From Pachysolen tannophilus NRRL Y-2460 (lineage: Eukaryota): a stretch of DNA of 64,000 bases. Under the pieces are notes generated by a model, which was not told the origin of the DNA, searched no databases, and saw only the letters and a list, made by a program, of their open reading frames with translations. Made by a program: the position numbers and the translations under genes. The stretch spans positions 1,204,724-1,268,723 of the forward strand of contig KV454011.1 in assembly GCA_001661245.1 (NCBI GenBank), in the 5' to 3' direction. Positions 2,559 to 57,151 of this stretch are shown piece by piece. Numbering within the stretch: the stretch's first letter is position 1; each line of letters opens with the position of its first letter.

Positions 2559-4627
2559 ATGTCACACGAAGGTGAAGAAGAACTTTTAGATTATTCCGAC
2601 TCGGAAGATGTTGCAGTTGCTCCATCAACAGCAACTGCTAATGAAGAGTTAAAAGATGGCAAAGATGAGTCGAATAAAAAAGGTTCATATATCGGTGTTC
2701 ATGCAACTAGTTTTAATGATTTCATGTTAAAAGCAGAATTATTAAGAGCGATTGCCGATTGTGGGTTTGAACATCCTTCAGAAGGTTAGTAATTTATAAA
2801 AAATGAAACATTTAATAAGATGAGAAGGAAGCAAAAAAAAAAAAAAAAAAAAAAAAAGAAAAACAATTAAAGCGAGATATTTTTTATTTGGTTATGGTAT
2901 GGATAATGGTTGAGAATCTATTATATATTATTTATCAACTCAACTTATCCTATCAGGAGATTGATGGTGCTATATGCATCTGCTCGAGGCAAAAGATTAT
3001 ATATATATAGTTGAACGCAAAGTTACAACCAATGTGATGTAGCTTGAGTTTGACTATATTTAATATTTCTCAATATAGTCTCACTTTCCTTCAAGCCAAC
3101 GCGAATGAGAAAACATAAAAACGTTAAAACATTTTTTTTAAAAATTAAAAAAAAAAAAAAAAAAAAAAAAGTTAGAGTTGAGTCTAATTCAACAATGTAA
3201 GAATTTTGATGTATTTTATTTAACAAAATACAATTTCCTTTTTTTCTTTCATAGATGAGATACTTATTATTCATTCCAAAACCAAAATATCTTCTTTAAT
3301 TGGAGCTCTTAAAAAGAAAGAAAGAAATAATCTTAAAAATCTTTTAATTTTTTTTTTTTTTTTTTTTTTTTTGCTTCCCAATCATAATCATCATCATATT
3401 TCAAAAGAAGAAAAAACTAACAAATCAAATTTTTTTTTAATTATTACAGTCCAACAAGTTTGTATTCCTCAGTCTTTAACAGGTACTGATGTCTTGTGTC
3501 AAGCTAAATCCGGTTTAGGTAAAACAGCTGTTTTCGTCTTGTCGACTTTAAACAGATTGGACCCAACACCAGGTGAAGTTTCCGTTGTTGTAATTTGTCA
3601 TACAAGGGAATTGGCTTACCAAATTCGTAATGAATATGCTAGATTTTCAAAATATATGCCAAATGTTATTACGGAAGTTTTCTATGGTGGTACTCCAATC
3701 AATAAAAATGTTGAAATTTTAAAGAACAAGGAAACTTGTCCTAATATCGTTGTTGCTACTCCAGGTAGATTAAATGCTTTGGTTAGAGAAAAACATATTA
3801 GACTTAATGAGGTTAAAACATTTGTCGTTGATGAATGTGATAAAGTTTTAGAATCAATTCGTAAGTGGAAACAAACATTATTTAATGATTATTTATTATT
3901 ATTATTATTCTTATTTTTGCCCATAAACTATTACTAACTTAAAACTTATTTATATTTAGATATGCGTTCTGATGTTCAAGAAATTTTCCGTGCTACACCA
4001 CATGAAAAACAAGTTATGATGTTTTCAGCAACTTTATCTCTGGAAATTAGACCTGTTTGTAGAAAATTCATGAAGTCACCTTTGGAATTATTCATTGATG
4101 ATGAATCGAAATTAACTTTACATGGTTTACAACAATATTATATTAAATTGGAAGAACGTGAAAAAAATGCAAAATTATCGGATTTATTAGATAATTTAGC
4201 ATTTAATCAAGTTATTATCTTTGTTAAATCTACTAGAAGATGTAATGAATTGAATAGATTACTTGCTAAATGTGGATTCCCAACAATTGCTGTTCATTCT
4301 GATTTACCTCAAGAAAAGAGAACAGAAAATTATAAATTGTTTAAAGATTTTAAATGTAGAATTTGTGTTGCCACAGATGTTTTTGGTAGAGGTATTGATG
4401 TTGAAAGAATCAACTTGGCTATTAATTACGATATGCCATCAGATGCTGATCAATATTTACATAGAGTTGGTAGAGCTGGTAGATTTGGTACAAAAGGTTT
4501 ATCCATTAGTTTTATCTCCAGTGAGGAAGATAATGAAGTTTTAGAAAAAATCCAATCTAGATTTGATGTTAAAGTTGCTGAATTCCCTGAAGAAGGTGTT
4601 GATGCTTCAACCTATATGCAAAGTTAA
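2559..4627 (+). CDS. SUB2: DECD-box RNA helicase Sub2/UAP56; exons 2559-2784, 3450-3860, 3960-4627 (434 aa)
   Basis: Motifs [34 protein letters not shown]. Intron 1 2785-3449 (GTTAGT..AACTAAC..CAG) and intron 2 3861-3959 (GTAAGT..TACTAAC..TAG) join three ORF-track fragments in frame. Confidence 0.97.
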
Positions 4628-4784
4628 AACAAGAAACTTTGATCTAACTAAGTTTTCTCTCTTTTTTTTGTTGTTTTTTTTTGTGTATGTGGTTTCTTTT
4701 TTCTTTATCTTTCTTTTCTTTTTATCAACCCCATCCGTAAATCACCTTTCCTATGTTTAAATATTGTATAGTCAAAATTTAAAA

Positions 4785-4901
4785 TCATTTTCCAGTATTA
4801 TTGTTGTAAAAACTACAAACACGATCAATTATTTTGAAAACATTATCTATTTCTTTTCTTGGAATTAAAAACCATTCAATATGTATGTTGAAATTACCTT
4901 T

Positions 4902-4933
<32 letters not shown>

Positions 4934-5549
4934 CAATACATCCATTACAATGCACATTACCATGACCATATTTCTGTCTTAAAAGTTGATGTATCTTAGA
5001 TTCCACAATATTAGCATTTTGCAAGCATAAAAACCCTGATTGAGTATTTTCATAGTTTAAATATTGTTTTGATCCATTTAGTGACATTTTTTTGAAAAAA
5101 AATAATAATTTATCCATATCATTTGTAATAACCTCTTGTTTTGAGTTATACGGATTCACAAGAAGAAGCTGGTGCTTACATTGAAACTCCCATTGCTTCA
5201 ACCTCGTATGTACACTCTGCGTAGTATACCCAATCTTGATCAAGATATCATGCTTGGGATTGAAAACTTTCAACTTGTTATCATTATATTTCTGTATTTT
5301 CAACCAGGGTTCTTTTGTAGGCTTGACCAACAAGTGTTGTAGAGTATATACGTATATGCGTCCTGGAACTTTTATTGGAATCAACTTGGAGCCCAATAAA
5401 GATTTTTTAGGACTGCCAGTACTATTGCTGGTACCAGTAATGGTACTTGAATTTTGTTGGAACTGGTGGTACCGACAAAACCCACCTTCTTTCACATATA
5501 TCTTACACCGCTCACCTTTCTTCGTTATTCCCTTACACTGTTTCGACAT
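4785..5549 (-). CDS. T5orf172/MUG113-family (GIY-YIG-like) domain protein with N-terminal Cys/His motif
   Basis: First ATG at 5549. Motifs QCKGITKKGERC..FCRYH, GRIYVY, IKIGYT..RLKQW..QC, ESKIH, C..C, HIEWF. Confidence 0.75.
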
Positions 5550-6861
5550 TTCAGCTTCAAGCCTTGAATCACCACCCACACCTCAACCCGCCAAAGAGTA
5601 CCGATTCAATTATATAAAACCCAATCTCCGCCGTTAAGAAAGAGAGAGAGAGAGAGAAAAAAAAAACCTCATCACTTACTTTCACTATTTACCTATTTCC
5701 TAAACGGTTGCACTTGGCACGCGCTCACACTACTGTTTTTTATCTTCAACTTTTCTTCACTTTTTTAAATATATCAAAGAAGAAGAAGAAGAAAAATAAT
5801 AGTAGTGTGCGCGGATCTCACTTTGCCGAAATAGGAACACCACAACCACGTTGAAATCCAGAACCAAAACCAGATCGAGAACCAGATTCCACGGCAAAAA
5901 GTACTCAAGCGAAAAAAAAGAAAAAAAGAAAAAGAAAAAAAGACAGGGTAACCTAAGACAAACCTTAAAGTCTAGAATAAATAAAGTTTGTTCTCGTTCG
6001 TGTCTGGGGCACGTAAAGTTTTTTTTTTGACGACCAAACTAACTTACATCATAATTAGTTTCCTAATCTAGTAATTGCCCCTGCGGGCCTGTAATTTGAA
6101 CTAGTGCGCGCATTGGTGGAAAAAAACTTATAAAAAAAAAAAGAGTATTTATTAAATTTATTAAAATGCAAAAAAAAATATAGAAAAAAAAAAGCGCCCC
6201 TAATCCACCTGCAGGGCACTCACCGCAAATCTGCATATGCCCCCTTTTCCTAGGCAACTACGTCAACAAAAATTGTAAACAAAAAAAAAAAATAAAAAAT
6301 TTGAATTTGAAACATCAAATTTTTCTAAGTTAAATTTCCCCCTTAATAAATAAATACTTCTAGACAAACAAACAAACACCTAAAAAGATTTGATATACCC
6401 TTGTTAGCAATTGATTGTTTTCTTTTTATTTATATTTTAATTTAATTTAATTTAATTTAATTTGATTTTCTTTTCTTTTGTTTTTTTTTGTTTGACAATC
6501 GAATTCACTCGTTCTAATATTCATTTTATTTATTTATTCATTCATTCATTCATTCATTGATATTTTAGTATCTGATACCGAATAGAATAGATATATTTTA
6601 CGAGTTGAGTTTTATTGAGTGATAATTTGCTAATTTGCTTCTACCGCCGCCGGTTGTTTATTGGAAAGATAAACTATCAACTAACTTGAGTCCTTCTTTA
6701 TTTTATTTTAAAAAAAAAAATTCGCTTTTTACGAATAACTATTTGCTTTTACTTGCTTTAAAATTTTGTGTGTGCTCTTTCATTTTATTGCAGTACCCGT
6801 GTTTATTCTTTCGTTGTTCAATATAGACATAATTGTTAAATAAATCTCATGGAATAAAGAA

Positions 6862-9800
6862 ATGTATACTCGACAATTATTCGGCAATATTTTTGTGGTA
6901 TTGTTTTTGCTATTTGCATTTTCGGATGCTTTGGCAATACCCACTTTGCTTACTGGAATTGGAGAGAATGATCAACAGCTGTCGTTGAATAAGATAAATG
7001 ATCAGTTAAGAAAAGTTGCTAGTGCTTTTAAGAAGAGAAGTAATAATTGGTTAGGAAATAAAAATTCTAATGAATATTATCAAAATTCAAATTCAACATT
7101 TTCTGTTACTTCAAGTTCAACAGGTGAAGATTCTACAGATTTTGCAACAGTGGATTTTTCCAGTATATTTGATGAGACATTTTTGTCTTCTTCTTCAAGT
7201 GAAGGGTCTTTGGAAACTGATGCCACAAGCATCGTTGATTCAAGTTCCTCAATTGCTGCTGTTTCCACTTCAAGTTCTTTGTCAACTTTTTCGTCAAGTT
7301 CAAGCTCCAGTTCTGTAACAGGGCCCTATTACCCAACAGAAACAGATTCTTCATCTTCATCTTCATCTTCTTCAACTGATGCGAGCAGCTCAAGTTCTGT
7401 TTCTATAACAGCAACGGCAACATCATCAACAGCAGTTTCAACAGCTGCAGATTCATCTAGTGCTAGTGTAACCTCTAGCGCTGATGACTCAGATACCAGT
7501 TCAGATTCTGCAGTTTCTTCAGATTCCTCTGCTACAGATTCTTCTACTACAGATTCTTCTACCACGGATTCTTCTGTCACTGATTCATCTGCCACAGATT
7601 CTTCTACTACTGATTCATCTGTCACTGATTCATCTGCTACTGATTCATCTGCTACTGTTTCATCTACCACAGATTCATCTACCACAGATTCATCTACCAC
7701 AGATTCATCTACCACAGATTCGTCTACCGATTATACTGCTTCATTGGACTCGTTATTGGCTTCAATCACTTCAACTTCTGGTTCAGTTTCCGCTACTTCA
7801 ACAACGTCATCTTATAGTGATGATGATTATGGTTCATATTCTGACTCGTATGAAACTTCTTCATCTTCAGCAACAACAACATCTGGGCTGCTGTCATCGT
7901 CCGGTGCAGTATTGAGTTCAACTGATGCTAATTCAACTGATGTTAGTTCAGCTGTTATTAGTTCAACTGATGCTAGTTCAACTGATATTAGTTCAATTGT
8001 TATTAGTTCAACTGACGCATCTTCAGCTGGCGCATATTCATCTGGCGTTAGTTCAAGTGACGTTAGTTCAGCTGACGTTAGTTCAACTGGTGTTAGTTCA
8101 GCTGACGCATCTTTAACTTTATCATTATCGTTAGCAACAGATTCAAGCTCAGTTGCAAGTAGCAGTTACACCAGTGATTTAACAAGTAGTTCAAGTGTTT
8201 TAAGCGATGATTATTCAATTTCTTTGATTTCTTCATTAGTAGCTTCAGAGACACTGGCAATTTCCTTGAGTATTGATCCTTTGAGTTCCACAGTTTCATC
8301 AGTTCCACTTGCTTACAGTACAGTCATTAGTACTTCTTCAAGTGCATCGGTTCCAGATTCATACTATCCGACAAGTAGCCTGGTATTATCAGTTAGTTCA
8401 GAAGAAGCTTCTTCAACATTATCATCTTCTACAGTTGCAGTGGAAAGTACTTCTTCTCCACTGGTTAGTGTTTCATCCCCAGTTTTAATTATTTCTTCTT
8501 ATTCGTCAGAGTCTGATACTGCTTCAGTATCAGCTTCTTTATTATTGGATTCTTCAAATACTCTCTCATCCATACCAACTTCAACAGATTCCAGTTCTGT
8601 TTATTCATCTCAAGTGCCAGATGTCATTTCATCCTCATATTTACCATCTGATACTGCTACTTCTATTGCTTCAATATCTGCAGGTTCGTCATTATCATTG
8701 TCAGCAGATTTAGAAAGCTCAAGTGAAGTTTCTAGTGCAGCCACTACCAGTGTATCACAACCTTTGAGTCCTGTTTCTGCTTCTGCTACATCTTCAATAT
8801 TATTGGAAACTTCAATCAGTGATTCTGAAAGTGCCACAAGTTATTCTGAGCTGACTGATTCGTTATCAGCATCACTATCATTATCATTATCTGATTCCCA
8901 AACTCTGTTGATATCGATTACCAGTGAAACTTCAGCCTCTCAAGGTGCTTCAGTTTATACTTCAGCTTCTACGGGACAGGAAAGTAGTGCTGTTGTTCCT
9001 TCAGAGACTTTAGCCAGTTCAGGAATTACTAGTACTGGTAGTTCAGTTGTTGTTACTTCATCATCTCTGTCGTCATCTAGTACTTCAAACTGGTTACCAA
9101 CTGAAATTATCACGGAAGGTGTACTGACATCGACTGCTAGTGGTAGCGTATCGGCAACTACTACTCTGCTGTCTACTACATTACCAAAGGCAATTGCACC
9201 AGCAGAAACTGAGGTTCCTTCATCTGATTTTAGTTTAATCACTATTGGTTTTAAACAAAGTTTAAATTATGCTTTTATCGTTGAGAACTCATTAGCACCT
9301 GCACAAATTTTTGAATATTTACCAAGTGTAGTATTATACCCATTTTCAAATACTAGTTATGACTCTTCAGTATTTGTTAAAGAATTAGTTCCATATACAG
9401 CTGCCGGTCTTGATTACATTATAACTGTTGCAGAAGTTTATTTCCCAACAAATTATATTGAAGAATTACAAAATTGTGTTGTCAACACTTCATCTAGTTT
9501 TTACAATAACCCAGATTCAACAGAGTATTCGTTAGCTTCTTTAGTTGATCCACAAGTTCCATTAACAGGTTTAGTGGATGAGACAAGCACAACATCAAGC
9601 ACAAGTGCCTCTTCATCTTCTACAAGTGATTCTGATGAATCAGATGATTCGGATGATGATAGTTTAGGGTCACTTGGTGTATCTTACTCTTCAAGTGGTG
9701 AAGGTACAAGTGATGGTGATGATAGCAACAGTTCTTCAAAGACTAAGAAAATAGTTGGTATTACTGTTGGTACAGTTGTTGGTTGTTCAATATACTTTGC

Positions 9801-10179
9801 ACTCTTGGTTCTCTTTTACAGGTTTAGAAAAGCCAAGAAATCTATCAATGGAAACAACGGCAATAATGATGATAATGAATATTATGATGGTATTTCACAA
9901 CCACAAATTTCAAGAGGATCTTCTAGAGGTTTTGGGCCGATTAATTTGCCGTTGAACGGATCAAACTCATTCATATCGGATTCTTCGCTCCATGCAGCTA
10001 ATAACAATAATAATAATCATAATTCACAAATTGGAGAGAACCGCAATAGCTTTAATAATGGTAGTTCTTGGGATCAAAGAAGATCAGGTACATCTACACA
10101 ACAAATGGATCAATTGGGAAACTACATTCCTAAGATTAGTACACCGGTACAACTGCAAAATTCTTTAGGTTGGGCTTAG
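6862..10179 (+). CDS. MSB2: Signalling mucin Msb2/Hkr1 family
   Basis: Signal peptide, long Ser/Thr region, HMH-like domain (ITIGFKQSLNY..APAQIFEYLP), one TM segment (IVGITVGTVVG), C-terminal IS.P....NSLGW. Near MCY1 and SNU71, as in S. cerevisiae. Confidence 0.9.
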   Translation: MYTRQLFGNIFVVLFLLFAFSDALAIPTLLTGIGENDQQLSLNKINDQLRKVASAFKKRSNNWLGNKNSNEYYQNSNSTFSVTSSSTGEDSTDFATVDFSSIFDETFLSSSSSEGSLETDATSIVDSSSSIAAVSTSSSLSTFSSSSSSSSVTGPYYPTETDSSSSSSSSSTDASSSSSVSITATATSSTAVSTAADSSSASVTSSADDSDTSSDSAVSSDSSATDSSTTDSSTTDSSVTDSSATDSSTTDSSVTDSSATDSSATVSSTTDSSTTDSSTTDSSTTDSSTDYTASLDSLLASITSTSGSVSATSTTSSYSDDDYGSYSDSYETSSSSATTTSGLLSSSGAVLSSTDANSTDVSSAVISSTDASSTDISSIVISSTDASSAGAYSSGVSSSDVSSADVSSTGVSSADASLTLSLSLATDSSSVASSSYTSDLTSSSSVLSDDYSISLISSLVASETLAISLSIDPLSSTVSSVPLAYSTVISTSSSASVPDSYYPTSSLVLSVSSEEASSTLSSSTVAVESTSSPLVSVSSPVLIISSYSSESDTASVSASLLLDSSNTLSSIPTSTDSSSVYSSQVPDVISSSYLPSDTATSIASISAGSSLSLSADLESSSEVSSAATTSVSQPLSPVSASATSSILLETSISDSESATSYSELTDSLSASLSLSLSDSQTLLISITSETSASQGASVYTSASTGQESSAVVPSETLASSGITSTGSSVVVTSSSLSSSSTSNWLPTEIITEGVLTSTASGSVSATTTLLSTTLPKAIAPAETEVPSSDFSLITIGFKQSLNYAFIVENSLAPAQIFEYLPSVVLYPFSNTSYDSSVFVKELVPYTAAGLDYIITVAEVYFPTNYIEELQNCVVNTSSSFYNNPDSTEYSLASLVDPQVPLTGLVDETSTTSSTSASSSSTSDSDESDDSDDDSLGSLGVSYSSSGEGTSDGDDSNSSSKTKKIVGITVGTVVGCSIYFALLVLFYRFRKAKKSINGNNGNNDDNEYYDGISQPQISRGSSRGFGPINLPLNGSNSFISDSSLHAANNNNNNHNSQIGENRNSFNNGSSWDQRRSGTSTQQMDQLGNYIPKISTPVQLQNSLGWA
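7522..7731 (+). repeat. Coding 15-nt tandem repeat (TDSS[T/A/V]) in MSB2
   Basis: Roughly a dozen ACnGATTCnTCTnnn units visible directly. Confidence 0.9.
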
Positions 10180-10677
10180 ATGCAAAATAAAATAGAAAAA
10201 AAATTTTTTGAAAGTTTTTATAAATAAGATATGTTTGATATTAATTTTCATTTAAACAAAACTGAATTTTCTTTTCTTTTTTTTTTTCTTTTTCTTTTTT
10301 TTTTTGTCGAGCTACGTTTAGTTCTTTTACCTCTTGTGTTTTTGCACTGATGGATATTTGTATTATTTTATGTTCATGTTTTATTAAAAATTTTTCTTAT
10401 AATTTTGGTTTTTTTTCTTTTCTATTCCATTCATTTTCACTCTTTTGATTTAACTGAATCTTTTTATTTTTTGATAAGTTGATTGAAACCATTTTGAGAC
10501 TTTTTTTTGCGATTTTGTCAATTTCGTTATTTGCTTTTATAGTATTTTTTTTTAGACAACTTCAAATGGTGCAATTTATCTTTTAAGATACCCCTGATAA
10601 AAAAATACATGTGTAAAATTTATATTAGTTCATATACGTAGATATACAATAAAATGTTTCTATAAGATTGTCAATCT

Positions 10678-11484
10678 CTATAAAATCAATCCTGCTGTTT
10701 CATTCAAGTAAATCAAATGCCTATCAAAATTTTTCAAAATCAACATCTTATTTAAAATTGATGGTTCTAATACATCTTTCCCCTTTTCCTTTGAAGAATA
10801 ATAGTTATCCAATTTTTTCAATGGTAAATTGTTTAACACCAATTTATCATCTCCTTCACAATATACAAACGTTTGGCCATTATCTTGAATTTCAATCTTT
10901 TCATAAAAATCCTTCACTTTTGAATAATACAGAAACTCCGATTTTTCCTCTTGGTCATTATTACCATCATTTAATAATTTATAATCGTTGGAATTCAATG
11001 GGTCAAATAATGTCTTTTCTTTATTGAACATTTTCGAAAACTCTAATCTACTATGTTCTGTATTCAACAAGTTCTTTAATATCTTATACTCAATGTTAAT
11101 ATCTTTTGAATCAACAAGTCCATTATTAACAAATATCAAAGTATTGATGATTCTTTCGATGAGCTGCTTATGAGTTAACAAATCAGCACCAGCAGTGTTT
11201 AGCACCGTTGATCTCTTTGAATTATAATCTGAATACTTGAATTTAAACCTAACATAGTTGGAATAAGTGTTCTTGATATCCTCTCTAGTGGTTATAAATG
11301 GTTTGAATCGTACAAAATATCTGTATAATATTAACAATTGATCTTTATTTTTAAAGTTTTCAAGATACTTGTCTTTGTTTAAACGTTTAATATTTAAAAA
11401 AACCTTTGACTTGTTCAACACCTGTTTATTGGTGAATATCGTCGAGTTATGAGTCGTCAATGGCAACTTAACTGAACTCTTCAT
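10678..11484 (-). CDS. IRC19: Irc19/Rrg4 family protein
   Basis: LYRYFVRFKPFI..IKNTYSNYVRFKFKYSDYNSKR matches the Irc19 core as recalled (LYRRFMRLKPFI..VKDTYRDYVRYKF..NYELKR). Confidence 0.8.
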   Translation of the reverse strand: MKSSVKLPLTTHNSTIFTNKQVLNKSKVFLNIKRLNKDKYLENFKNKDQLLILYRYFVRFKPFITTREDIKNTYSNYVRFKFKYSDYNSKRSTVLNTAGADLLTHKQLIERIINTLIFVNNGLVDSKDINIEYKILKNLLNTEHSRLEFSKMFNKEKTLFDPLNSNDYKLLNDGNNDQEEKSEFLYYSKVKDFYEKIEIQDNGQTFVYCEGDDKLVLNNLPLKKLDNYYSSKEKGKDVLEPSILNKMLILKNFDRHLIYLNETAGLIL

Positions 11485-11626
11485 TCTGTTGTTGTTGTAT
11501 TCCCTTTATCTTTATTTTGATATATATAATAATATATATCATATTAATATATTGAAAGATATTTATATCATCACTACTGGAAAAAAGAGATTTAATATAT
11601 TCAATTATTTTTAATCAAATCACTTT

Positions 11627-12644
11627 ATGAGTTCAATTAAGGTGAAATCCACAGAATTATCAGTCTTGGTGAATTCATCCAAGGAGTTGATCAAGTGCTC
11701 TTATGATTATAAGCTAGTAACAAACACAAGTTATGATTATGAAGATGATATGATAGTATTACCGAATTACCCCTTTGTTGTATGAATTACCTTACTCAAA
11801 ACAAATGAGCAATACATTTAGATAAGAGATAATAAAATCTAACTAGTGATTATAGATCGTTCATTTCAATCTATTCATTAATGGTTTCCATATTAATAAT
11901 GAGTTAAATCCACATTTCACCAATATTTTATCTCAAAGTCTTAGTAATGGTAAGTTTTGGAAAGATATCAATTATACAGTTGATGAAGGTATTTCTGAGA
12001 ATAAAAATACGGTAAAGATATTACTCAAGTGTAATTTTCTTGAAAGATGGGGAGATATTATAGTCAACAGTAAAGATGGTTTAAATGGTTGTGCTTTTGA
12101 TGAAGACAATGTTGCTGTTAGTGCTTCTGGTGCTGCAAATAACAGTGGGATCAGCTTTCGCCAACTACAAGAACTAAATATAGAACTGAGATTGTTTTTA
12201 AACAACGATGATCCTTCAAGAATTCTAAATCACTTAAATTACTTGTTTTCCAGTGTATTTTTAAGCTTAGAATTGCAACTTCCATTTGTCTTTTCATTTT
12301 ATGGAAGGTTGTCCTTAGTTAAAAATTCAAAAGAGCGTTTAAATGAATTATCAATGATTCTTACAAAAGATCAAACAAAGTTATTCAAAGACTTGATATT
12401 GCAATTGAATCGCTCGATCTATAATTTGAATAATGAATTGAACAATAATTTAAAGAAAATATTGGAAAGAAATTTAACATCTTCAAAAGCAGATTATTAT
12501 TTAAAATTAAAGATGAAAAATACTAATCTCAATAACCATGCTTTAGATATGGAAGAATTAGCATCAAAGAAAAGATTAAGCTTCTACAATTTCAACGAAT
12601 TCTTTAGTCTTGATGTATTGAAGGAAATAGTTGATCAAGTATAA
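11627..12644 (+). CDS. REC102: Meiotic DSB protein Rec102; exons 11627-11779 and 11856-12644 (313 aa)
   Basis: Phase-0 intron 11780-11855 (GTATGA..ATCTAAC..TAG) restores one reading frame. Blocks FWKDINYTV, KILLKCNFL and HLNYLFSSVFLSLELQLPFVFSFYGRLSL align with recalled Rec102 blocks FWEEQLFYQV, ILSLKCTIL and HFNEYFSSLIVSQLEFEYPMVFSMISRLRL. Confidence 0.82.
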
Positions 12645-12784
12645 ATTGTATACTTTTTATAAATTTAAATAAATTAAATTAAATTAAATTAAATTAATTA
12701 TAATGAAATTTTTAATAATTATCATTTTTGTAATTTACAAATTTCGAAATTTCAAATTAATATCTTTAATTAATTGAAATAGCC

Positions 12785-13942: not shown

Positions 13943-14139
13943 ATAGTTCTCTGTTCTCTGTTCTCTGTAGATATTAAAGATAAGTTTCTTCAATAATAAT
14001 AAATATATTTTACTTGTATAATTTAAAAAAATTTTCAAAAAAACCCAAGTTAATACTAAAAACTTTTATATTTAATTTTTAAATAAATTATTACAAGTTG
14101 ATAATCACAAAATTGATTGATATCAAGAGTAGAGGCCAA

Positions 14140-16026: not shown

Positions 16027-16154
16027 GACGACCCCCCTTAGATAAATTATTTGTACTAATACATAATTATATTAACTTAAATACAAGTTTCGTGAAAATC
16101 TATATCTATATATAAGAAAGATAGAAAGAGAGGGGCGAACATGGTGAACACAAG

Positions 16155-42079: not shown

Positions 42080-42085
42080 ACGCGT
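42080..42085. promoter_or_regulatory. MCB-like element ACGCGT upstream of BNI4
   Basis: Exact hexamer about 500 bp upstream of the ATG. Confidence 0.35.
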
Positions 42086-46188: not shown

Positions 46189-46493
46189 ACCATTTTATTA
46201 ACAACGGACGAGATATTTTGTTTTTTTCTTTTTTGTATTTCAGCATATTTGATTTAAAGGTTAAGGACAGACATGCCTCATCATGTTTAAATAATTCATT
46301 AGGTATTTATTTTAGATTTATGTACTTATGCTAAACTGTTCGTTTTTTAACCGTTTATTTTGTTTCGTTTTACCTTTTTTTTTTTTTTCTATTTGCTTGT
46401 GGGGACCTTTTAACTATTTTACAGACGGTTAAAATATTTTATCAAATAAACTCTTGAATATTTACATTTCTAGTTCTTGTATTATAATAATAT

Positions 46494-49256
46494 TTAAGTG
46501 AAAGGAACACTATCTCCATCATCCCAGAATAAACTATTATTGCTCTTATCACTTCGTCCGTAGAGTAACCAATTTTTCTTAACTTTCTTCAAGGATATCT
46601 CAGCAGATCCAATTCCGTATCTTATTAGCTGGTTGAAACAACACTCAATAATGAGTCTATCCATTGGCTCAAATGCAAAAATTCCACTTATTAAAAGAAC
46701 CCATTGCAACATAATTAACCTGTGGTCAAATTCGGTAATTAAATATTTTGAAAAATCTATTGGTTTTTTAATAAATTGCTTTATCTGAGATCGATCATTA
46801 TCGTTTAACTCTTTATCAACACTCTTTGATTTTGTTATCTTTAAATTATCGTTATGATCATTTTCTTCTTCTCTTGGATGTAATTGCATTTGCGTATGAG
46901 TGTCAGCATGTGTATCTTTCATGCCATTATTCTCGGATGTATTTGTTGAATTTTTAAATTGTTTCTTCTTTCGCAAACAACTATCAATAATATCTTTTTC
47001 TTTATCATCCAAAGTATTGTAATAACAATCCAATTCTTTCAAATCCTCCTGACTTATGTTATCTTTCACACGTATAAAGAAAAAACTATCCAATATTCTC
47101 TTCACCAAGTGCTGAGCTATTTTAGAGTCACAGCTTAAGTTGAAAGCCTCATTACATATCAAAATTCTCAAAGTTCCAGCAAGTCGATGAACCTGATTTA
47201 CTAAATCAAAATATGAAAACCAATTCTTGTTGATTTCACTATAAAAATAACAGGATAAAGGTACACCCATAAATCTTTTATCATTAAATTGATTTTTCTG
47301 GAGGTCTTGAGATTTCATTGATTTTATCAAGTTTTCAGGATGATGAGGTGATTCACTAGGAATTACATAAGGTGCATCTTTTGTTATTACAAAATCTTGA
47401 CCTGATTCGTCTAATAACCTCATTATTTTCAATATTTCATTGACATGTAACTGAGGTTCACCATTAACGTAATCAACCATTTTGCTAAATTTTTCTTTTT
47501 CTGATAGATTGTCAGTCTTTGTTCCTTCTTTCTTAGACAACGCCCTTCTAATGGCTTCCAAAGCCAAGATCGTCTCTTTAAAAGCTTCAACCATCGAGTT
47601 AGTTAATCCCAAATATATGTTATAACTATTTGTCTTTACTACCACAGTACCATCATTTTTCAAAGAATAGCAATTGACTGAAAATCCAATTTCAGATAAA
47701 ACTTTCCCATAATCTGGATCTGTCAAATTTAACAATTGATTTAATTCAAGAGAATTGTGAATAGTTCCTCCAATTGGAATTGTCAATGAAGCTAATATTT
47801 CCATTGATCCAAAGATACATTTTGACAAGGCTACACCAGTATTATTTAAACTTGTACAAGTTGAATACTTTAGCAATAAATCTTTAGCTCCTCTTAAATG
47901 GGCCCTCCAATTTGAACCTGATGACGAAGAAAAATCAGCAGCCAATACCAAGATGGTGAAAAGCAAGCTTTCTATATTATTTGTTATTTCCTCTTTCTTC
48001 TTCAAAACTGAATCCAATGCGTTTAAGCAATTGGTTAAATAATAAGATCTCAATTTTTTGTGGACTTCAAAAGCACCAATTGCGGGCCCATTATCTAGGT
48101 CATCTATAGCTGAAAGACGTTGATAATATTGGTACCTAGCTGCAGTGGCTAACATAGCTGATAATAAATAAGGTGCTTTCTTGGCTTGGATTAACATTGT
48201 GTGAATCAAAGAGTTTTGTAAATAAGATGTTGCAAAGGGGGCTAACGTCAAATACATATCAGTTATAAATATTTTCAAATAGTTCATGTGTGAGGATGAT
48301 AAGCTAAATTGGAAAAAATTGGCAATATTGATCAAATCATTTTGAGATATAGAATTATTCAATTTTTCTAAATAGTCAAATTCTTGTGAAATAGTATTGT
48401 TCTTGTCACTGATGCTATTGTTTTTATTACTATGGAAATTATTTTCATTATTATCAGTAGCATCTACTGAGTAATCACCAAATACATTGTTATCAAAGAT
48501 AGCATTGCTATTGGTATTATTTTCTTGTTGGTACAATTCCTTGAATGGAGGGTCTAACTGAATCAAATCATTCAAATCATTAATAAGCGAAGATGCATCA
48601 TTAAATAGTTCATCAAATAAAGCTGGATAAAAATTATTACTATTACTATTGTTATTATTGTTATTGTTGTTGTTGTTACTGTGATTGTCATTTTGGTGTT
48701 GTTGAGCTTGGTTAATATCGTAACCATATTGGCCTTTATTAATATCATTCTTATTATCACTACTATTGCGGCCATAGTAATCCAGATTCAAATTATAATT
48801 CTCTCCAGTCTCATTTTCATTCAATAAGAACCTCAATGTAGGTACAGGAGACGAAGCATTTTTAATTGTTGGTGTTGCTGCTGTTGTTGCTGCTGTCGCA
48901 GTATCAACACCAGTTGTAGAATCGTTGACAGTATACGATGTCGACGGCGAAGTAGGCACAACTGAATCTGAGAAACTAGCTCTATTTACAAGTTGCTTCA
49001 CTTGTTTTCCATTTCCAACACCAATCTTTTTCAGCTTCCCACCATGACATTTCAAATTCACCAACTTTTCATTCTTGGAATTAATAGTAAAAATTCTTGA
49101 ATTATTAAACTTTATGATCTTATCGTAATTACAATTTCTTTTAGTATTTTGACAATAAGTACAAATTGGATGAACTTCATCACATTTCAACTTCCTTCTT
49201 TTACACTCTCCACATCCATTTCTAGAATAATGTCTCTTCTTCTTTATCTCTTCCAT
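46494..49256 (-). CDS. Zn(II)2Cys6 transcription factor, Lys14-like
   Basis: YSRNGCGECKRRKLKCDE..PICTYC......CNY; C-terminal fungal TF domain (WRAHLRGAKDLL). Confidence 0.8.
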   Translation of the reverse strand: MEEIKKKRHYSRNGCGECKRRKLKCDEVHPICTYCQNTKRNCNYDKIIKFNNSRIFTINSKNEKLVNLKCHGGKLKKIGVGNGKQVKQLVNRASFSDSVVPTSPSTSYTVNDSTTGVDTATAATTAATPTIKNASSPVPTLRFLLNENETGENYNLNLDYYGRNSSDNKNDINKGQYGYDINQAQQHQNDNHSNNNNNNNNNNSNSNNFYPALFDELFNDASSLINDLNDLIQLDPPFKELYQQENNTNSNAIFDNNVFGDYSVDATDNNENNFHSNKNNSISDKNNTISQEFDYLEKLNNSISQNDLINIANFFQFSLSSSHMNYLKIFITDMYLTLAPFATSYLQNSLIHTMLIQAKKAPYLLSAMLATAARYQYYQRLSAIDDLDNGPAIGAFEVHKKLRSYYLTNCLNALDSVLKKKEEITNNIESLLFTILVLAADFSSSSGSNWRAHLRGAKDLLLKYSTCTSLNNTGVALSKCIFGSMEILASLTIPIGGTIHNSLELNQLLNLTDPDYGKVLSEIGFSVNCYSLKNDGTVVVKTNSYNIYLGLTNSMVEAFKETILALEAIRRALSKKEGTKTDNLSEKEKFSKMVDYVNGEPQLHVNEILKIMRLLDESGQDFVITKDAPYVIPSESPHHPENLIKSMKSQDLQKNQFNDKRFMGVPLSCYFYSEINKNWFSYFDLVNQVHRLAGTLRILICNEAFNLSCDSKIAQHLVKRILDSFFFIRVKDNISQEDLKELDCYYNTLDDKEKDIIDSCLRKKKQFKNSTNTSENNGMKDTHADTHTQMQLHPREEENDHNDNLKITKSKSVDKELNDNDRSQIKQFIKKPIDFSKYLITEFDHRLIMLQWVLLISGIFAFEPMDRLIIECCFNQLIRYGIGSAEISLKKVKKNWLLYGRSDKSNNSLFWDDGDSVPFT

Positions 49257-49390
49257 CTGATACTCCTGATCATATATAACTAACTAGATAATTATTTGAA
49301 TTATAAATTACAAATTTATTGCTATTAAAATATTTTTGTACTATTAAAAAGTTTTCTATGTAAATCGTCCTAAAAGGGGAAAAATTATCA

Positions 49391-51115
49391 TTAATCAAAA
49401 GTCTTTGACCAAACTTTTACTGTTAAACCATCTTTTAAGATCAGCTCTTCCTGGACCAAGTGGTAATTGGAAATCCAGGGCAATATTCTGAAATATGTGA
49501 GCCAATATAGAAAGCACAGGGCTAGCATTATGACAGCAGATATGGCGTAGATTTTGTTTTCATCATTGGTATCACCAACAAATGGACCTATCAACATCAA
49601 GATGGAGAATATTGTAAAAAACCATACACCTATCTTAGGAGCTTTTATCAGTGGTTTGATATGGGGATATCTTTTACCTATGATTAACAAACCTATTGAA
49701 GTCAATGCAAAGAAAAATTTGCTTGGATAACTTTCTAAATTGATTAAAAAATTGTAAAGATCATTAGTCATTGGGAGACTTAAAATCAATATATTTAAAA
49801 CTAAAGAAACCATTAAAGCTGGGAAAGGAGCATTATAGGGCCAATTGGAGGCCAATTTTTTAGAAAATGGTAAGAATCCTTCTCTGAAAACTTCTTGGTT
49901 CATTCTACCGGCACTATAAGTCACCACTAATACATTTCCTCCTGCACAAATGGCAATAGTTAATCCTAAAAATCTTGACCCAATTGAATCACCAAAAATT
50001 TTAGTGAAAAGTAATCCACCAACAAGTTCATTACTATTAATTAATTCATCATAAGGTATAACTATGAGATATGCTAAATTTATCAATAAAAAACTAATAA
50101 ATAAAATCAACATTGCTATGGGACATGATATTTTCAAAGTTCTAGCAGGATTAATAACTTCTCCTGCAAATACTGTTATTGTTTGATATCCTCCAAAAGT
50201 AAATGTTGCTTTAAAAATTGCAGATGTTAAAGAAGAAACACTTACATGTTGTTTAATTTTGAAAAAATCTTGTATAAGATTATTATCTGGATATTGAATT
50301 CTAGTAATTGATGTGGGCAACATAACGAAAACACCACAAAATGCTAACAAGAGTAATAAGAGAATCTTCAAGCCTCCAACAAAGTTTTGGAAAAAAACTC
50401 CATGTTTAATAGAAAATCCATAACATAATGTACAAAATGTACATAAACCTATAGCAATAAGTCTTAATGTAGTTTCTCTTGGTTCAGTAATTCCAAATGA
50501 TGCTAAAACATATTTCCCAAATATGATGGCATTATTAGCACTGAATGCAAATAAGATGCTATAGATACCGAAAACAACACTCATTAACATCTTTGGTTTA
50601 TAATAAATAAATTGTAAATAGACTTTTTGACCACCATTTTTAGATATTATAGAACTTAACTCTAAAAAGACATATAACCCTGAAAATCCCAAGAGTCCAG
50701 CTACTACCCATACTGTAAAGAATAAAAATGGAGATCCTCCACAATCTTTATAGATTAAAGCAGGAGCTGCAAAGATTCCCGACCCTAATATCTTGGAAAT
50801 CATTACTACCGCAACTGACATCATCCCCAAATGACGCTTATGGTTATTATCAAAATAATTATCATTTCTAAATAAATAGTAATTATCATTTTCTATCCTA
50901 GATTTTGAAAAAGAGAGTCTATTGTTATTTTGTAGTCCATGGTCATCACTATTATAAACGTTATTATTATCATTCCCATAATATAAAAGTGCAGAATCAG
51001 AATCTAATAAATTTTGATTTTCACTCACAACGGCCAAAATATCTTCTTCACTTTCATCAAGTAAAGATGATCCAAGCCGTGCCTTTGCCATTTCATCAAC
51101 ATCAGAAACCACCAT
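49391..51115 (-). CDS. MUP3: LAT-type amino-acid permease, Mup3-like methionine permease
   Basis: RHLG, ILGSGIFAAP, GGQKVYL, GEVINPARTL, RMNQEVFREGFLPFS; about 12 TM segments. Met31/32 site upstream. Confidence 0.8.
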   Translation of the reverse strand: MVVSDVDEMAKARLGSSLLDESEEDILAVVSENQNLLDSDSALLYYGNDNNNVYNSDDHGLQNNNRLSFSKSRIENDNYYLFRNDNYFDNNHKRHLGMMSVAVVMISKILGSGIFAAPALIYKDCGGSPFLFFTVWVVAGLLGFSGLYVFLELSSIISKNGGQKVYLQFIYYKPKMLMSVVFGIYSILFAFSANNAIIFGKYVLASFGITEPRETTLRLIAIGLCTFCTLCYGFSIKHGVFFQNFVGGLKILLLLLLAFCGVFVMLPTSITRIQYPDNNLIQDFFKIKQHVSVSSLTSAIFKATFTFGGYQTITVFAGEVINPARTLKISCPIAMLILFISFLLINLAYLIVIPYDELINSNELVGGLLFTKIFGDSIGSRFLGLTIAICAGGNVLVVTYSAGRMNQEVFREGFLPFSKKLASNWPYNAPFPALMVSLVLNILILSLPMTNDLYNFLINLESYPSKFFFALTSIGLLIIGKRYPHIKPLIKAPKIGVWFFTIFSILMLIGPFVGDTNDENKIYAISAVIMLALCFLYWLTYFRILPWISNYHLVQEELILKDGLTVKVWSKTFD

Positions 51116-51212
51116 TTGGTCTATTTATTGTATATTATTGTTGTTGTTGATATTAGTAATTAAAGAAAGATATGCATAAATATTAAAAAAAGAGGTTTCC
51201 GATAAGAAAAAC

Positions 51213-51222
51213 GCCACAGTTT
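51213..51222 (-). promoter_or_regulatory. Met31/Met32 site AAACTGTGGC
   Basis: Perfect consensus on the minus strand about 100 bp upstream of the MUP3-like ATG; GATAAG at 51201-51206. Confidence 0.65.
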
Positions 51223-51385
51223 TCATTTAAAATGGAAAAGATGAAAATGAAGATGAAGAAAATGAAGATGAAGAAGATGAAGATGAAGAAGGAAAATAAT
51301 TCAAATTTTATTAAATCTATATTGAATTCTAAAAAAATATATATGTGTGTGTGTGTTTATGAGTTTGTGAGTTTATTCATTTGTC

Positions 51386-52810
51386 TTAGAAGACGTATGG
51401 GATGAACAAGTAAGGACATTCTTTTAAGTATCTATCCCAATCTTTACCGTATTTCTTTGCGCATTTTCTATTATCTCTAACTGCTCTATGGGTTAATACG
51501 ATGAAGAAGAATACTGGGTAAAACCATGGGAATGGCGACAGGAACCCACAGATGAATCCCCATGTCAAGCATTGGACGTAATCGGCGGTATAATGCATTT
51601 TTCTTGCATATTTATACCAACCATCTGTTAATAATACTGAACCATTTGCACATTTTATATATTTTGGATTTTTCAAGACTTGACCTGGTAAATATGGGAA
51701 AGTTTTCCTAATTGATTTATCACCAGCCATAAATTTTCTAAAAGTATTTTTTTGTGCATTACCTGTATCGAAGAAATAATAAGCAATTAATAATAACATA
51801 TATAATGAAATGTTATAAGTTTTTGACCAATTATACTCTGATGGATCATGATGATATAAGAATAAAGTACAATGACAATAAGTATATGGAACACCAGCAA
51901 TATTCCAAAAAATCAACAAAAACCCAAATTTTTCATAAGCCATATCCCATGTTGGAACAATTAATTCTTCACCTTTAGAACAAGCATTTGCATATAAATA
52001 ATGAGCTAATAAAAGAAAACAAGCTTGTGGTGTTATATAACCAAAAGTTTCATATTGATATAAACATAAACTTAAGCTTAAAAAAAATAAAGTAAACCAA
52101 GGTAATCTAACTTCGAAAAACATTTTTAAATCAATTATACCAATTCTTGGATTTAAAGGAGCACCCATAAACATATCATAAATTACATTACCTGTTAAAT
52201 CATGATAATCACCTGAAATGAAAAGGGTATATAAATATAATGAAATACTAAAGATAAAACCAAGTATAATAGCAATAGTCATTAATTCTCCAAAATGTTC
52301 TAATATATAATATAATTTGAAAAAACCTGTAAAATGCATTATAAGAGCTATTGTAAATGATGTATAAAAAGTCCACATTGCATTACAATAATAAGGTAAT
52401 TGTTTATTTTGTAAATGAGTTAATGGTTGACCTTTTGTCCAAATACCTGGTAAAATTATATAAAAAATTAATTGACAAACAATAAATGTAATAAATATTT
52501 TCCAAGAATTAAATGATGGAATACCATTTTTTAAAAATAATTGATATAAATGATTTAAAAAATCACTAAAAGATTCTTTATCAGTTGGCCAAGCAGGTTT
52601 ACCATTATAAAACTCTGCACTTAACCACATATAATACATCAATAATGGGAAACCAATCATCATTCCTAAAGCACCTATTGGACCTCCAAACTCATATTCA
52701 ACTTGTTTCTTGTTAGAAACAGAATCAGAAGAATCTGATGTAACTTGTTTCAAATTAACTCCATTAGAATCATTTTTCTTGGAGGATCTGGATCTAGTGA
52801 CAGCAGCCAT
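51386..52810 (-). CDS. ERG4: Sterol C-24(28) reductase
   Basis: [47 protein letters not shown]...CPY.FIPYVF. ATG at 52810. Confidence 0.97.
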
Positions 52811-52984
52811 ATTAGCAATCAGCAATCAGCATTCAGCAATAAGCAATAAGCAATAGTTCCACTATTAGTTCCAATATTGTTTATAATCAACTGGAGGAAG
52901 GAGGATTTACTTGACTATTTATATGATTTGCGTGAAATTTTTACGTACACGTTACCAATTTTATTTTTCAAGTTTTAAAAAAAA

Positions 52985-53007
52985 TCGTATAAAAAGACTC
53001 TCGTATA
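52985..53007. promoter_or_regulatory. Two sterol response elements TCGTATA (Upc2/Ecm22 type)
   Basis: TCGTATA at 52985-52991 and 53001-53007, 175-197 bp upstream of the ERG4 ATG. Confidence 0.7.
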
Positions 53008-53095
53008 AAAACATATGAACGATGACAACAGCAACAACTGCAACTGCACGATTATTAAAATGTAGTTATATCTAAATCTATATATGTGTATATTG

Positions 53096-53970
53096 TTAGT
53101 CCTTTTCAGCAATAGAGATTAATCTTTCATCAATTTCTTCTGGTGTTAAAATTCTAAAACCTTTTTCTTTAGTAGCAATACCAATTTCAATATCATTTTT
53201 CCTAAATTCTGTACTTAAAACATTACTCAATTGAATGATTGCAAATTCAACAACTTTCTCCCAGTTTCCCTTACATAAAACTGATTTTTTTCTTTCACCA
53301 TCTTCTGTTGTTGTTGTTGTTGAACCAGTTTTTTTCAAACTTTTCTCTAAAGATGCCATTACTTCTTGTTCTTTTGGACCTGTAGCACAAGCTTTTGAAG
53401 AATTATAATAACCTGCTGGATCACATCTAAATAAACTTGGTCCAAATTCTTCATCATAACTAATAAATGTTAATACTACTCCTAATGGTCTCATATATGC
53501 TCTTTGAGTATAAATTTGTGATAAATTTGCCATTCTCTTTGCCAATGCATCACATGGCATTTCATACCCATACTTGTATTTAAACTCAGAAGCCTCTGCT
53601 CTTGCTCTTAAAGCTTGTGCTCTAGCATCTGCAATCGATCCTGTTACACACATTCCAATTGAAGGAGTAATTTGAAATAAGTAAGTTATAGTCTTTGCAT
53701 CCAATAATTTATCAGGAATCTTCTTTTGAGATATTACTACACTAGAATCCTCACCACATATACCCATAGAAGTGATATTTGCTAAATTGATTGCTTTAAA
53801 AGCATATTCTACTTGATATAATCTGCCTTCCGGTGAAAAAATGGTAATATGTCTATCAAAACCTGCAGAGCCTAAACAAAGAAAAAAAAAAGAAAAAAAA
53901 CTTGTTAGAATCAAACACCATATTCAATTGAATGAGAAAAAAGCCCACTACAATCAAACTTACCAGACAT
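53096..53970 (-). CDS. SCL1: 20S proteasome alpha-1 subunit; exons 53970-53964 and 53871-53096 (260 aa)
   Basis: ATG TCT G, then intron GTAAGT..TTCTAAC..TAG (53963-53872), giving [26 protein letters not shown]. Confidence 0.97.
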
Positions 53971-54097
53971 TATCTACTATATGATCTCAATTAAATATTT
54001 AATTAATTAAATAAATATATAAATATATATATAAAGTATAAAATATAAACCACTTCTTTTGTTCTTCTTCTTTCTCTTTGTTCTTGATTTCGCCTGT

Positions 54098-54106
54098 AGT
54101 GGCAAA
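54098..54106 (+). promoter_or_regulatory. Rpn4/PACE-like site AGTGGCAAA
   Basis: One mismatch to GGTGGCAAA, about 130 bp upstream of the SCL1 ATG. Confidence 0.65.
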
Positions 54107-54441
54107 AATTCAACTTTTTTTTTTTAAATGAAGTATAAAATTTCCCAAAGCGGTAATTCATTTTTGGTAGTTTTGTGAACGACTTTTTGATACAACAAAA
54201 AAAGACACAAAATTTCCTAATTGGGATAATTTGGTTTGATAAAGCACTACCGCCTTTCAGAGGCCGCAAGAAAAAAATGCGGACGCAATTGTAGGCGCAA
54301 ATTAAGTGTACACTTGTGTATCACAACTGTGGACCGCGAGTATCAGCGCGCGTGGTTGCTCAACTGCGGATATTACTGCTGCTGCTTTTGTCGCTGCTGT
54401 TATCGCTGGTACTGCTGCTGCTACTCCTGGTGCTGCTACTC

Positions 54442-55533
54442 CTAGTCGTGGTTACCCATCAAGATTCTGGAACTATATTGGGCAAAGTTTTCAGTCTCAT
54501 TAACCATATCACTTAAACTTGGCTGACAGAAAACAGCTAATGTGTTTCTTGCTATATTTTGATATTTTGCATCTTTAAAATTTTTAACAAAATGAGGAAC
54601 TGCCTTGAACCGATTATTCGAAACTTCTTGTAAGCAGCTCCCAGTTTGGAAAGCTAGGCAATCAATGGGTATACTTATTTTCACTGCTTGGCCTTTTCTG
54701 TCTTTAATAAATAATCCCGAATTATGGGAATCAGGAGAATTAGGTAAGATTTCACCGGTTTCCTCGTTGATGAACAATGCACTTGTTAAGCCAGTAAGAC
54801 ACGAATGGTCTAAATGTTCACCACACCAGTCTGAGTCATCGTCGGAGCTAGCAAGTAAAGCAGAGCTAGCAGAGCTAGCAGATCCTGCTGCTGATGATGC
54901 TGCTGCTGATGATGCTGTTGATGACTCGGATAACGGGTAATAATGCAATAATCTTGCCTTGGTTGTATACGATTTCTCAACAATAGTTTCCAAGTATCTT
55001 GGTTTATAATTTTCTATATTTTGTAAACAATACCTATCACAGTTTTTAGCAACTTCAATACTAACACTTATAATCAAGTTGATTAATCTTTTACAATCCA
55101 TAACAAAATTCGGCATCAATTCTTGTGAAGGCCACAAATTCAGACACGTATATGCCTTATATTTATCAAAACCAACAATTTCCTCGGATATAGGGCCTTC
55201 CTTGTTAAAATCTTTATAAAATGAACAATTAATATAATATGAACCTTTAAATAAATCAGGTTTACCATTCAATTTTTCCTTCCCCAATGACCACCCAATA
55301 AGCCATGTTGCCTCTTCATTCTCCATTCTCTCTAATTCATGTTTAGGAAGCTTGGCCAATATAGAAGCTGCACTTAAAACCTTCAATCTAAGTTCATAAT
55401 ACTCTTGTGGAAGATCTTTAACTACAATAATACCTAAACTCTTTTGACCAAATGCCCTTTCCAAAACATCAAATGAAATCCCTTTCTTCAACTCCTCAAG
55501 CGATACAGTAACACTACCACCTTCATAGCTCAT
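54442..55533 (-). CDS. 2-oxoglutarate/Fe(II)-dependent dioxygenase family protein
   Basis: ARLLHYYP, HxD (GEHLDHSCLT), distal His (AVPHFV), RxT (RNTLAVF). First ATG at 55533. Confidence 0.85.
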   Translation of the reverse strand: MSYEGGSVTVSLEELKKGISFDVLERAFGQKSLGIIVVKDLPQEYYELRLKVLSAASILAKLPKHELERMENEEATWLIGWSLGKEKLNGKPDLFKGSYYINCSFYKDFNKEGPISEEIVGFDKYKAYTCLNLWPSQELMPNFVMDCKRLINLIISVSIEVAKNCDRYCLQNIENYKPRYLETIVEKSYTTKARLLHYYPLSESSTASSAAASSAAGSASSASSALLASSDDDSDWCGEHLDHSCLTGLTSALFINEETGEILPNSPDSHNSGLFIKDRKGQAVKISIPIDCLAFQTGSCLQEVSNNRFKAVPHFVKNFKDAKYQNIARNTLAVFCQPSLSDMVNETENFAQYSSRILMGNHD

Positions 55534-55741
55534 ATTCCAACCTCTTCTCCCTCTATTCTCCTCTTTATATTTCAATTTGTATTTAAAAAAAATTCTTTAT
55601 TCTATTCTATCGGCTAATTTATAAAATTAAATAAATTTAAAAAATATAAAAATTTTTTAATTTTATTAATTAATTAATTAATTAATATTTTTTGCTTAAT
55701 TTCAATTAATAAACTTGTTGTTAGGGTATCATCTATGGACG

Positions 55742-57151
55742 ATGGCGTATTCATGGCTGGATGATGATGACCAAACTCTCCAGCATGATAGTAAGACGTT
55801 GAAATATATGCCGTTGTATGAATTAAATTCGAATTTTAATCAACAATATAGACCAAATGTTTCTTACCATTATAATGAACAAGTTTCTCATTTTCATTAT
55901 GGAGTTAGACATCCTATGAAACCTTTTAGATTGATGCTTACTGATCATTTAGTGATAGGGTATAAGTTACATGAGCATATGGATTTATATAAGCCAAGAC
56001 GAGCTACAAGAAGTGAATTATTGGAATTTCATTCTGAAGATTATATTGATTTTTTATCCAGTATAACTCCTGATCAATCTCTGTTAAAATCATATCTGGA
56101 TACTTTACTGAAATTTAATATAGGTGATGATTGTCCTGTATTTGATGGGATGTATGATTATGCTTCGATATATGCTGGTGCTTCTTTGGATGCTACAAGA
56201 AAATTAATAAATGGACAAAGTGATATTGCTATTAATTGGTCTGGTGGACTTCATCATGCCAAAAAATTTGAACCTTCTGGTTTTTGCTATGTGAATGATA
56301 TTGTCTTGTCAATATTAAACTTGTTGAGATATTATCCAAGAGTCTTGTATATAGATATTGATTTACATCATGGTGATGGAGTTCAAGAGGCATTTTATAC
56401 AACAGATAGAGTATTAACATGTTCTTTCCATAAATACGATGGGAAATTTTTCCCAGCAACAGGTAATCTTGATGAAACAGGAATAGGTAAAGGTAAGAAT
56501 TTTGCTATAAATGTACCTTTAAGAGATGGAGTTGATGATGAAAGTTATATAAGGTTATTTAAATCAATAATGGAACCTTTAATAAATCAATTTAATCCTT
56601 CAGTTATTGTTCAACAATGTGGGGCAGACTCTTTAGGTTGTGATAGGTTGGGACGCTTTAATTTGAACATTAAAGCTCATGGTGAATGTGTTAATTTTAT
56701 TAAAAGTTTTGGAATTCCAATGTTAGTGGTTGGTGGAGGAGGTTATACTCCAAGAAATGTTAGTAGGTTATGGTGTTATGAAACCTCATTATTAACAAAT
56801 GTTAAATTAAATAGTAAATTACCTGAAAACTTGGCTTTTAGAAATTGGTTTAAGCCAGATTATTCATTGCATCCAAATTTAAAAGGTGATAATTTACAAA
56901 ATCAAAATGATCGAAAATTCTTGGAAAATTTGAAAATAACCGTATTGGAACAATTAAGATTTTTAAATGGAGCTCCAAGTTGTTCAATGAATGAAATCCC
57001 ACCGGATTTACAAGGTTTTACTAAAGATGATGAAGAGGCCTTTTATGAAAAATTAAAAGAGCAAGATTTTAACGATAAATTTATAGATGGAGAAGCTAGA
57101 GATAAAAAAATTATGAAAGATGAAGCTAGAATTGGGGAATTAATGGAATAA
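55742..57151 (+). CDS. HOS2: Class I histone deacetylase Hos2
   Basis: [60 protein letters not shown]. Confidence 0.95.

Follow-up and report, generated by a model that had tools for sequence, protein, structure and literature searches.

CTG codons in a 64,000-nucleotide stretch of a Pachysolen tannophilus contig and the case for their reading as alanine

The stretch of DNA considered here, which we call the window and take at its whole length of 64,000 nucleotides, belongs to contig KV454011.1 of Pachysolen tannophilus NRRL Y-2460 (assembly GCA_001661245.1), and the subject of this work is the amino acid that the codon CTG (CUG in the messenger RNA) specifies in its genes. From the evidence presented below, the source of the window is very probably a budding yeast that belongs to the CUG-Ala clade (order Alaninales), where every in-frame CTG is read as alanine (Ala), and not as leucine (Leu) or serine (Ser).

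Genes and CTG codons at the locus

The window has a guanine-plus-cytosine (GC) content of 30.4% and contains 26 open reading frames (ORFs) of at least 200 amino acids, totalling 15,600 codons. According to Pfam and PDB searches of these ORFs, the gene content is of the budding-yeast type. Pfam or PDB matches are the basis for the identity of SUB2, PMA1, STT3, a HOS2-type histone deacetylase and a flavohaemoglobin (YHB1), as well as of a member of the ERG4/ERG24 family, a UBX-domain protein and an SCT1-like acyltransferase; PUF4, HSM3 and two zinc-cluster factors were recognized by Pfam/PDB searches. For the ORFs of 1105 and 1201 amino acids, which the original prediction had called MSB2 and BNI4 respectively, the Pfam search gave no match, and both gene names are unverified. 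The 1105-amino-acid ORF contains tandem-repeat arrays.

Altogether, 95 in-frame CTG codons, spanning 560..62961, are distributed over 22 of the 26 ORFs. The original prediction, made from the sequence, had cited a dozen sites, most of them in contexts where Leu appeared to fit poorly; all 12 proved to be in-frame CTG codons within long ORFs, with the flanking residues as quoted. The cited sites are listed in Table 1 together with other CTG codons of the same genes.

Table 1. CTG codons of the window with the residues present at the equivalent positions of orthologues (n, number of rows in the column)
Feature	Position in window	Strand	Orthologue residues and remarks
SUB2, CTG	4040..4042	+	Third exon, residue 27 of ORF 3962-4627; Gln in S. 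cerevisiae Sub2
1105-amino-acid ORF, CTG pairs	7888/7891 and 9166/9169		In frame
SCT1-like acyltransferase, residue 144, CTG	18036..18038	-	n=150: Gly 91, Ala 14, gap 14, Val 9, Leu 5; Ser outside the eight commonest residues
STT3, residues 327-328, adjacent CTG pair	28344..28349	-	Transmembrane stretch; 327, n=119: Gly 45, Ala 41, Leu 17, Ser 2; 328, n=119: Leu 85, Ala 33, Ser 1
STT3, residue 303, CTG	28419..28421	-	n=119: Ser 67, Pro 25, Ala 8, Thr 7
PMA1, residue 727, CTG	33653..33655	-	n=80: Thr 42, Ser 23, Lys 5, Ala 2
PMA1, residue 133, CTG	35435..35437	-	n=77: Leu 64, Met 8, Ile 3, Ala 2
PMA1, residue 75, CTG	35609..35611	-	Variable, n=77: Leu 21, His 12, Thr 11, Asp 9, Ile 7, Val 7, Ala 5
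UBX-domain ORF, CTG	38705		In frame
YHB1, residues 118 and 141, two CTG	40789..40862	-	Cited as 40860 and 40791; bacterial structures 3ozu_A (FHP) / 1gvh_A (E. coli): 118, Asp/Gln; 141, Glu/Glu
1201-amino-acid ORF, CTG pair	46105/46108		In frame
ERG4, residue 424, CTG	51539..51541	-	Gly in two solved sterol reductases
HOS2, deacetylase domain, three CTG (residues 114, 119, 123)	56081..56110	+	Cited site 56108 is residue 123; 114, n=119: Asn 25, Ala 24, Ser 17, Lys 16; 119, gaps predominate in 119 rows; 123, n=119: Ala 36, Lys 26, Glu 15, Ser 11

Two of these genes present a particular structure. The coding sequence of SUB2 is apparently split into three pieces by two introns (window 2547-4627, forward strand), with open frames at 2547-2789, in part of 3224-3937 and at 3938-4627, and only the last piece contains CTG. 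In STT3, residues ~447-528 (window ~27744-27989, reverse strand) form a low-complexity insert of ~80 residues, rich in Asn, Thr and Ser. The STT3 structures of S. cerevisiae and Chaetomium gave no alignment to this insert, and both PDB alignments break from ~446 to 529.

Residues at the orthologous positions

Orthologues were collected by homologous-protein searches for HOS2 and STT3 (119 rows each), by a representative-protein search for SCT1 (150 rows) and, for PMA1, by tblastn among metagenome loci (80 rows). A CTG column was taken as usable when no fewer than half of the rows had a residue there, a threshold that left 11 columns from these four genes. The homologue search with PUF4 gave no usable CTG column; the 11 CTG codons of this gene are all located at residues 28-547, and the matches, which fall on the PUF domain beginning near residue 590, span ~36-47% of the query.

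On these columns, the CTG codons of the window do not follow the pattern of ordinary Leu codons. Leu accounts for at least 50% of the residues in 2/11 CTG columns; for the remaining Leu codons this is so in 197/278 columns (Fisher p = 6e-4). Furthermore, four extra columns taken from solved structures (YHB1-118, YHB1-141, SUB2-27 and ERG4-424) do not present Leu in any case. Codon usage points in the same direction: with 95 CTG, 55 CTA and 34 CTC codons, the CTG/CTA ratio is 1.7, against ~0.1 to 0.55 for the other NNG/NNA ratios of the window. Because all the other NNG codons remain well under their NNA partners, CTG seems to be uncoupled from the CTN box.

Several statements of the original prediction can be evaluated on these columns. 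It had proposed the alignment of CTG positions with orthologues as a check, and there the columns are not mostly conserved Leu (2/11) and Ala is the residue that fits best. Of the positions for which it had given homologues with Ala, HOS2-123 has Ala as the modal residue (36/119), and SCT1-144 is Gly-modal (91/150) with Ala second, level with the gaps (14 each). The argument that CTG within transmembrane helices favors Ala turned out to be weak, since both transmembrane sites correspond to Leu-dominated columns, where Ala and Leu are not separable. This agrees with the caveat that had accompanied the argument: STT3-328 is Leu in 85/119 orthologues and PMA1-133 in 64/77. At PMA1-133, S. cerevisiae presents Met and Neurospora Leu; the description of this stretch as a transmembrane helix is that of the original prediction.

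The residues were then compared by a site-specific profile likelihood similar to that of Codetta, where the log of the weighted frequency of each residue in the column is summed over the 11 CTG columns. Ala obtained the best value (-26.6), followed by Leu (-31.4) and Ser (-37.0). The method gave the right residue for 50/50 other codons with at least five columns, and in entropy-matched draws of 11 columns the true residue was recovered in 91-100% of the trials. Ala remained first at pseudocounts from 1 to 20 and with any single gene removed. It ranks first because it is present at fair frequency in nearly all CTG columns, while Ser is almost absent at STT3-327, STT3-328, SCT1-144 and PMA1-133, and Leu at HOS2-123, STT3-303 and PMA1-727. 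Therefore, Ala is supported as the best-fitting residue at the CTG columns of the window, with a margin over Leu that is not decisive.

A classifier based on flanking residues, applied to the 95 CTG codons, called Leu or Gln. We do not take this result as evidence, given that the classifier was right for 10/48 held-out codons and frequently returned a false Leu. It does rank Ser codons correctly (5/6 first), and Ser was outside the top eight residues for CTG.

Position in the HOS2 tree and in the public record

A maximum-likelihood tree of HOS2, with 30 rows and based on this one gene, paired the protein of the window with the row P0124 (support 100/99), and placed the pair as sister to eight Leu2/Pichiales rows (90/86). 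The pair is located outside the starred five-row Ser1 group and outside the two starred Leu1 groups. By path, the rows nearest to the window are P0124 and the Leu2 rows, not Ascoidea or Saccharomycopsis. According to PMC5951914, the Ala clade is formed by Pachysolen, Nakazawaea and Peterozyma and splits, within Pichiaceae, from the Leu2 clade (Komagataella, Ogataea, Pichia and Kuraishia). The position of the window in the Ala clade is supported by the agreement of the HOS2 tree with that published placement as sister to Leu2, and the NCBI taxonomy assigns P. tannophilus to the order Alaninales.

The same alignment offers a second kind of evidence. P0124 carries Leu at 3/9 conserved-Ala columns and is the only one of the 119 rows with at least two such sites. 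This pattern may be the mark left by CTG codons that mean Ala when a gene is translated with the standard code; the three Leu residues would then be encoded by CTG. Leu at conserved Ser columns in 10 other HOS2 rows served as a positive control for this type of mark. These ten public proteins (P0144 and nine others), one of them named as from Babjeviella inositovora, present Leu at 2-5 of 14 conserved-Ser columns, and they look like proteins of CUG-Ser species to whose genes the public collections applied the standard code.

The sequence of the window is already annotated publicly as CUG-Ala. Exact look-ups of ERG4, YHB1 and HOS2 in NCBI/UniRef were successful in 3/3 cases for the translations under table 26, and in 0/3 under table 1 or table 12. 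The deposited proteins P0121, P0122, P0123 and P0243 correspond to ORFs of the window without any other difference and carry Ala at 11/11 CTG positions; in the deposited proteins Ala occupies all three CTG positions of HOS2, both of YHB1 and ERG4-424. Taken together, the likelihood ranking of Ala over Leu and Ser, the public translations under table 26 and the position in the HOS2 tree support the inference of the original prediction that Ala fits best, with most of the weight carried by evidence external to the window (the public translations, the tree and the published work on P. tannophilus).

Regarding other genes, HOS2, STT3, ERG4 and YHB1 are present in the public collection. The PUF4 ORF (23152-25941, reverse strand) is absent among the 120 matches listed in its own homologue search, and the CTG-free ORF of a pyridoxal-phosphate enzyme (PALP domain; 12785-13939, forward strand) had no exact-sequence match in the public collection. 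The public gene models of these two ORFs probably differ in start or splicing. Another ORF without CTG, of 254 amino acids (4785-5549, reverse strand), combines T5orf172/MUG113 and DUF5763 domains. Between the PUF4 and STT3 ORFs, position 26452 is N, the sole ambiguous base of the window.

Alternative readings and comparison with known CUG codes

For the CUG-Ala clade the following mechanism may be proposed, with the parts on transfer RNA (tRNA) and peptides taken from the literature on P. tannophilus. The ancestral tRNA-Leu(CAG) would have been lost, and an alanine tRNA that acquired the anticodon CAG by mutation would decode CUG. It is the acceptor stem (G3:U70 and A73), and not the anticodon, that alanyl-tRNA synthetase recognizes, so that the mutated tRNA would still be charged with Ala and each in-frame CTG would give alanine. 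In PMC4937558 the tRNA(CAG) of P. tannophilus is described as carrying G3:U70 and A73 and as lacking a long variable arm. The same work, by liquid chromatography-tandem mass spectrometry, found Ala at 97.2% of 907 fully supported CUG positions, and counted 16,824 CUG codons in 5,288 proteins, with 80% of the genes affected. If CTG is Ala in the window, standard-code translations are wrong at 95 positions in 22/26 ORFs, and table 26 is consequently needed for annotation, homology searches and structure prediction.

It should be noted that several results weigh against reading CTG as Ala. The decisive molecule was not seen, as searches with ARAGORN and Rfam detected neither a tRNA nor any other RNA gene in the 64,000 nucleotides of the window, and it was the depositors who chose table 26 for the public translations, which are not an independent measurement. 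Ala leads Leu by a modest 4.8 log units, a difference that shrinks to 0.3 without HOS2. In addition, a pooled substitution-table score put Ser first and Ala fourth, with every score negative; this pooled table was replaced by the site-specific probabilities because it is blind to the residues tolerated at each site. Two columns, PMA1-133 and STT3-328, are those where Leu is conserved. Moreover, CTG does not behave like the ordinary Ala codons (GCN): Ala reaches at least 50% in 0/11 CTG columns versus 126/165 GCN columns (p = 4e-7), it is modal in 1/11, and true Ala columns, drawn 3,000 times with matched entropy, always gave a better fit (mean -12.5) than its -26.6. In the available text of PMC4937558, Pachysolen CUG codons are described, for a set of motor proteins, as located mainly at conserved alanine positions; the 11 columns of the window, a small sample, show no such siting and are in tension with that statement.

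The columns with CTG are variable, with a median entropy of 1.50 compared with 0.47 over all columns, and CTG is found at Leu-conserved columns more than GCN is (2/11 vs 0/165, p = 0.004). A Gln codon adjoins 13/95 CTG, against ~7% for all other codons (p = 0.02), and several CTG are placed within poly-Gln runs (e.g. 20042, 25785/25779 and 24609), as expected from a single change of CAG to CTG. The one-step neighbours of CTG are codons for Leu, Val, Met, Pro, Gln and Arg, and there is no GCN among them. This plausibly explains why CTG codons are found where the column is variable or of the Leu type, rather than where Ala is conserved. Most new CTG(Ala) codons would derive from codons for Leu, Gln and the like through one base substitution, at sites that tolerate it, an origin that fits both the Leu-type columns and the excess next to Gln. 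The location of CTG off conserved Ala sites, as seen in 11 columns, fits a fresh origin of these codons after the capture of CUG by the tRNA.

These patterns could also be carried further, to a distinct and young class of CUG(Ala) codons that would differ from an ordinary fifth codon for Ala, with one-step replacement of Leu or Gln by Ala still ongoing, or, in a bolder version, with residual or conditional reading as Leu at sites such as PMA1-133 and STT3-328. We consider this proposal very improbable.

The standard code, with CTG encoding Leu and being merely rare and located at variable sites of an AT-rich genome (30% GC), has somewhat poorer prospects still. Leu is modal in 3/11 deep columns (PMA1-75, PMA1-133 and STT3-328) and is second in the likelihood test, nearly tied with Ala when HOS2 is left out (Leu -20.9, Ala -20.6). 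However, the choice among synonymous codons should be independent of the conservation of the site, which does not agree with 2/11 against 197/278 (p = 6e-4); the four columns from PDB structures present Asp/Gln, Glu, Gln and Gly; and CTG outnumbers CTA and CTC in spite of the 30% GC. The absence of standard-code translations in the public record (0/3) and the mass spectrometry published for P. tannophilus, which gives Ala (PMC4937558), point the same way.

A reading of CUG as Ser (table 12), which is that of the Ser1 yeasts (Candida/Debaryomyces) and of the Ser2 yeasts (Ascoidea/Saccharomycopsis), is less credible than the standard code. STT3-303, with Ser in 67/119 rows, is the single Ser-like column among the CTG sites, PMA1-727 is a Thr/Ser column, the Ser/Thr-rich stretches of the 1105-amino-acid ORF hold many CTG codons, and Ser led the pooled substitution-matrix score already discussed. 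In the site-specific test, though, it was the lowest of the three residues (-37.0), and it is almost absent from four CTG columns that hold Ala (2/119 at STT3-327, 1/119 at STT3-328, outside the eight commonest residues at SCT1-144 and unlisted at PMA1-133). Ser reaches at least 40% in 1/11 CTG columns versus 94/187 columns of Ser codons. The HOS2 tree, which sets the window with Leu2 and outside the starred Ser1 rows, and the public record (0/3 for table 12 translations) are likewise opposed to Ser.

Equally hard to credit is a dual or context-dependent decoding, mostly as Ala with a real minor reading as Leu, similar to the stochastic Ser/Leu of Ascoidea asiatica: CTG does fit none of Ala, Leu and Ser in the way that ordinary codons do, and it is in excess at Leu-conserved columns relative to GCN, but PMC4937558 reports 97.2% Ala at 907 positions, with exceptions about as frequent as for AUG, a one-step origin from TTG or CTN codons is a simpler explanation of the Leu-type columns, and other species carry Ala in both of those columns (33/119 and 2/77).

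The reassignment of CUG to Ala is already known: it was published in 2016 and the clade was delimited in 2018, and the window adds nothing new to it. As a system, the window is like the Pachysolen tannophilus code (table 26; Muhlhausen et al. 2016, PMC4937558; Krassowski et al. 2018, PMC5951914), and nothing in the available text of these works sets it apart. The density of CTG agrees with the published values, being 3.7 per ORF in the window compared with 3.2 per protein of P. tannophilus, and the genes affected amount to 85% (22/26) compared with 80% (PMC4937558). The CUG-Ser1 yeasts (Candida, Debaryomyces; table 12) share with the window the transfer of CUG away from Leu, through a tRNA charged by a synthetase that does not read the anticodon, and the depletion of CTG at conserved Leu sites. 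The amino acid and the lineage are different, as Ser is the worst fit in the window, which lies outside the starred Ser1 group. The CUG-Ser2 or stochastic decoding of Saccharomycopsis and Ascoidea, as far as described in the available text of PMC6041473, is likewise an independent reassignment of CUG in an AT-rich yeast lineage; in contrast to those yeasts, the window presents no Ser signal, and its nearest HOS2 rows are elsewhere in the tree.

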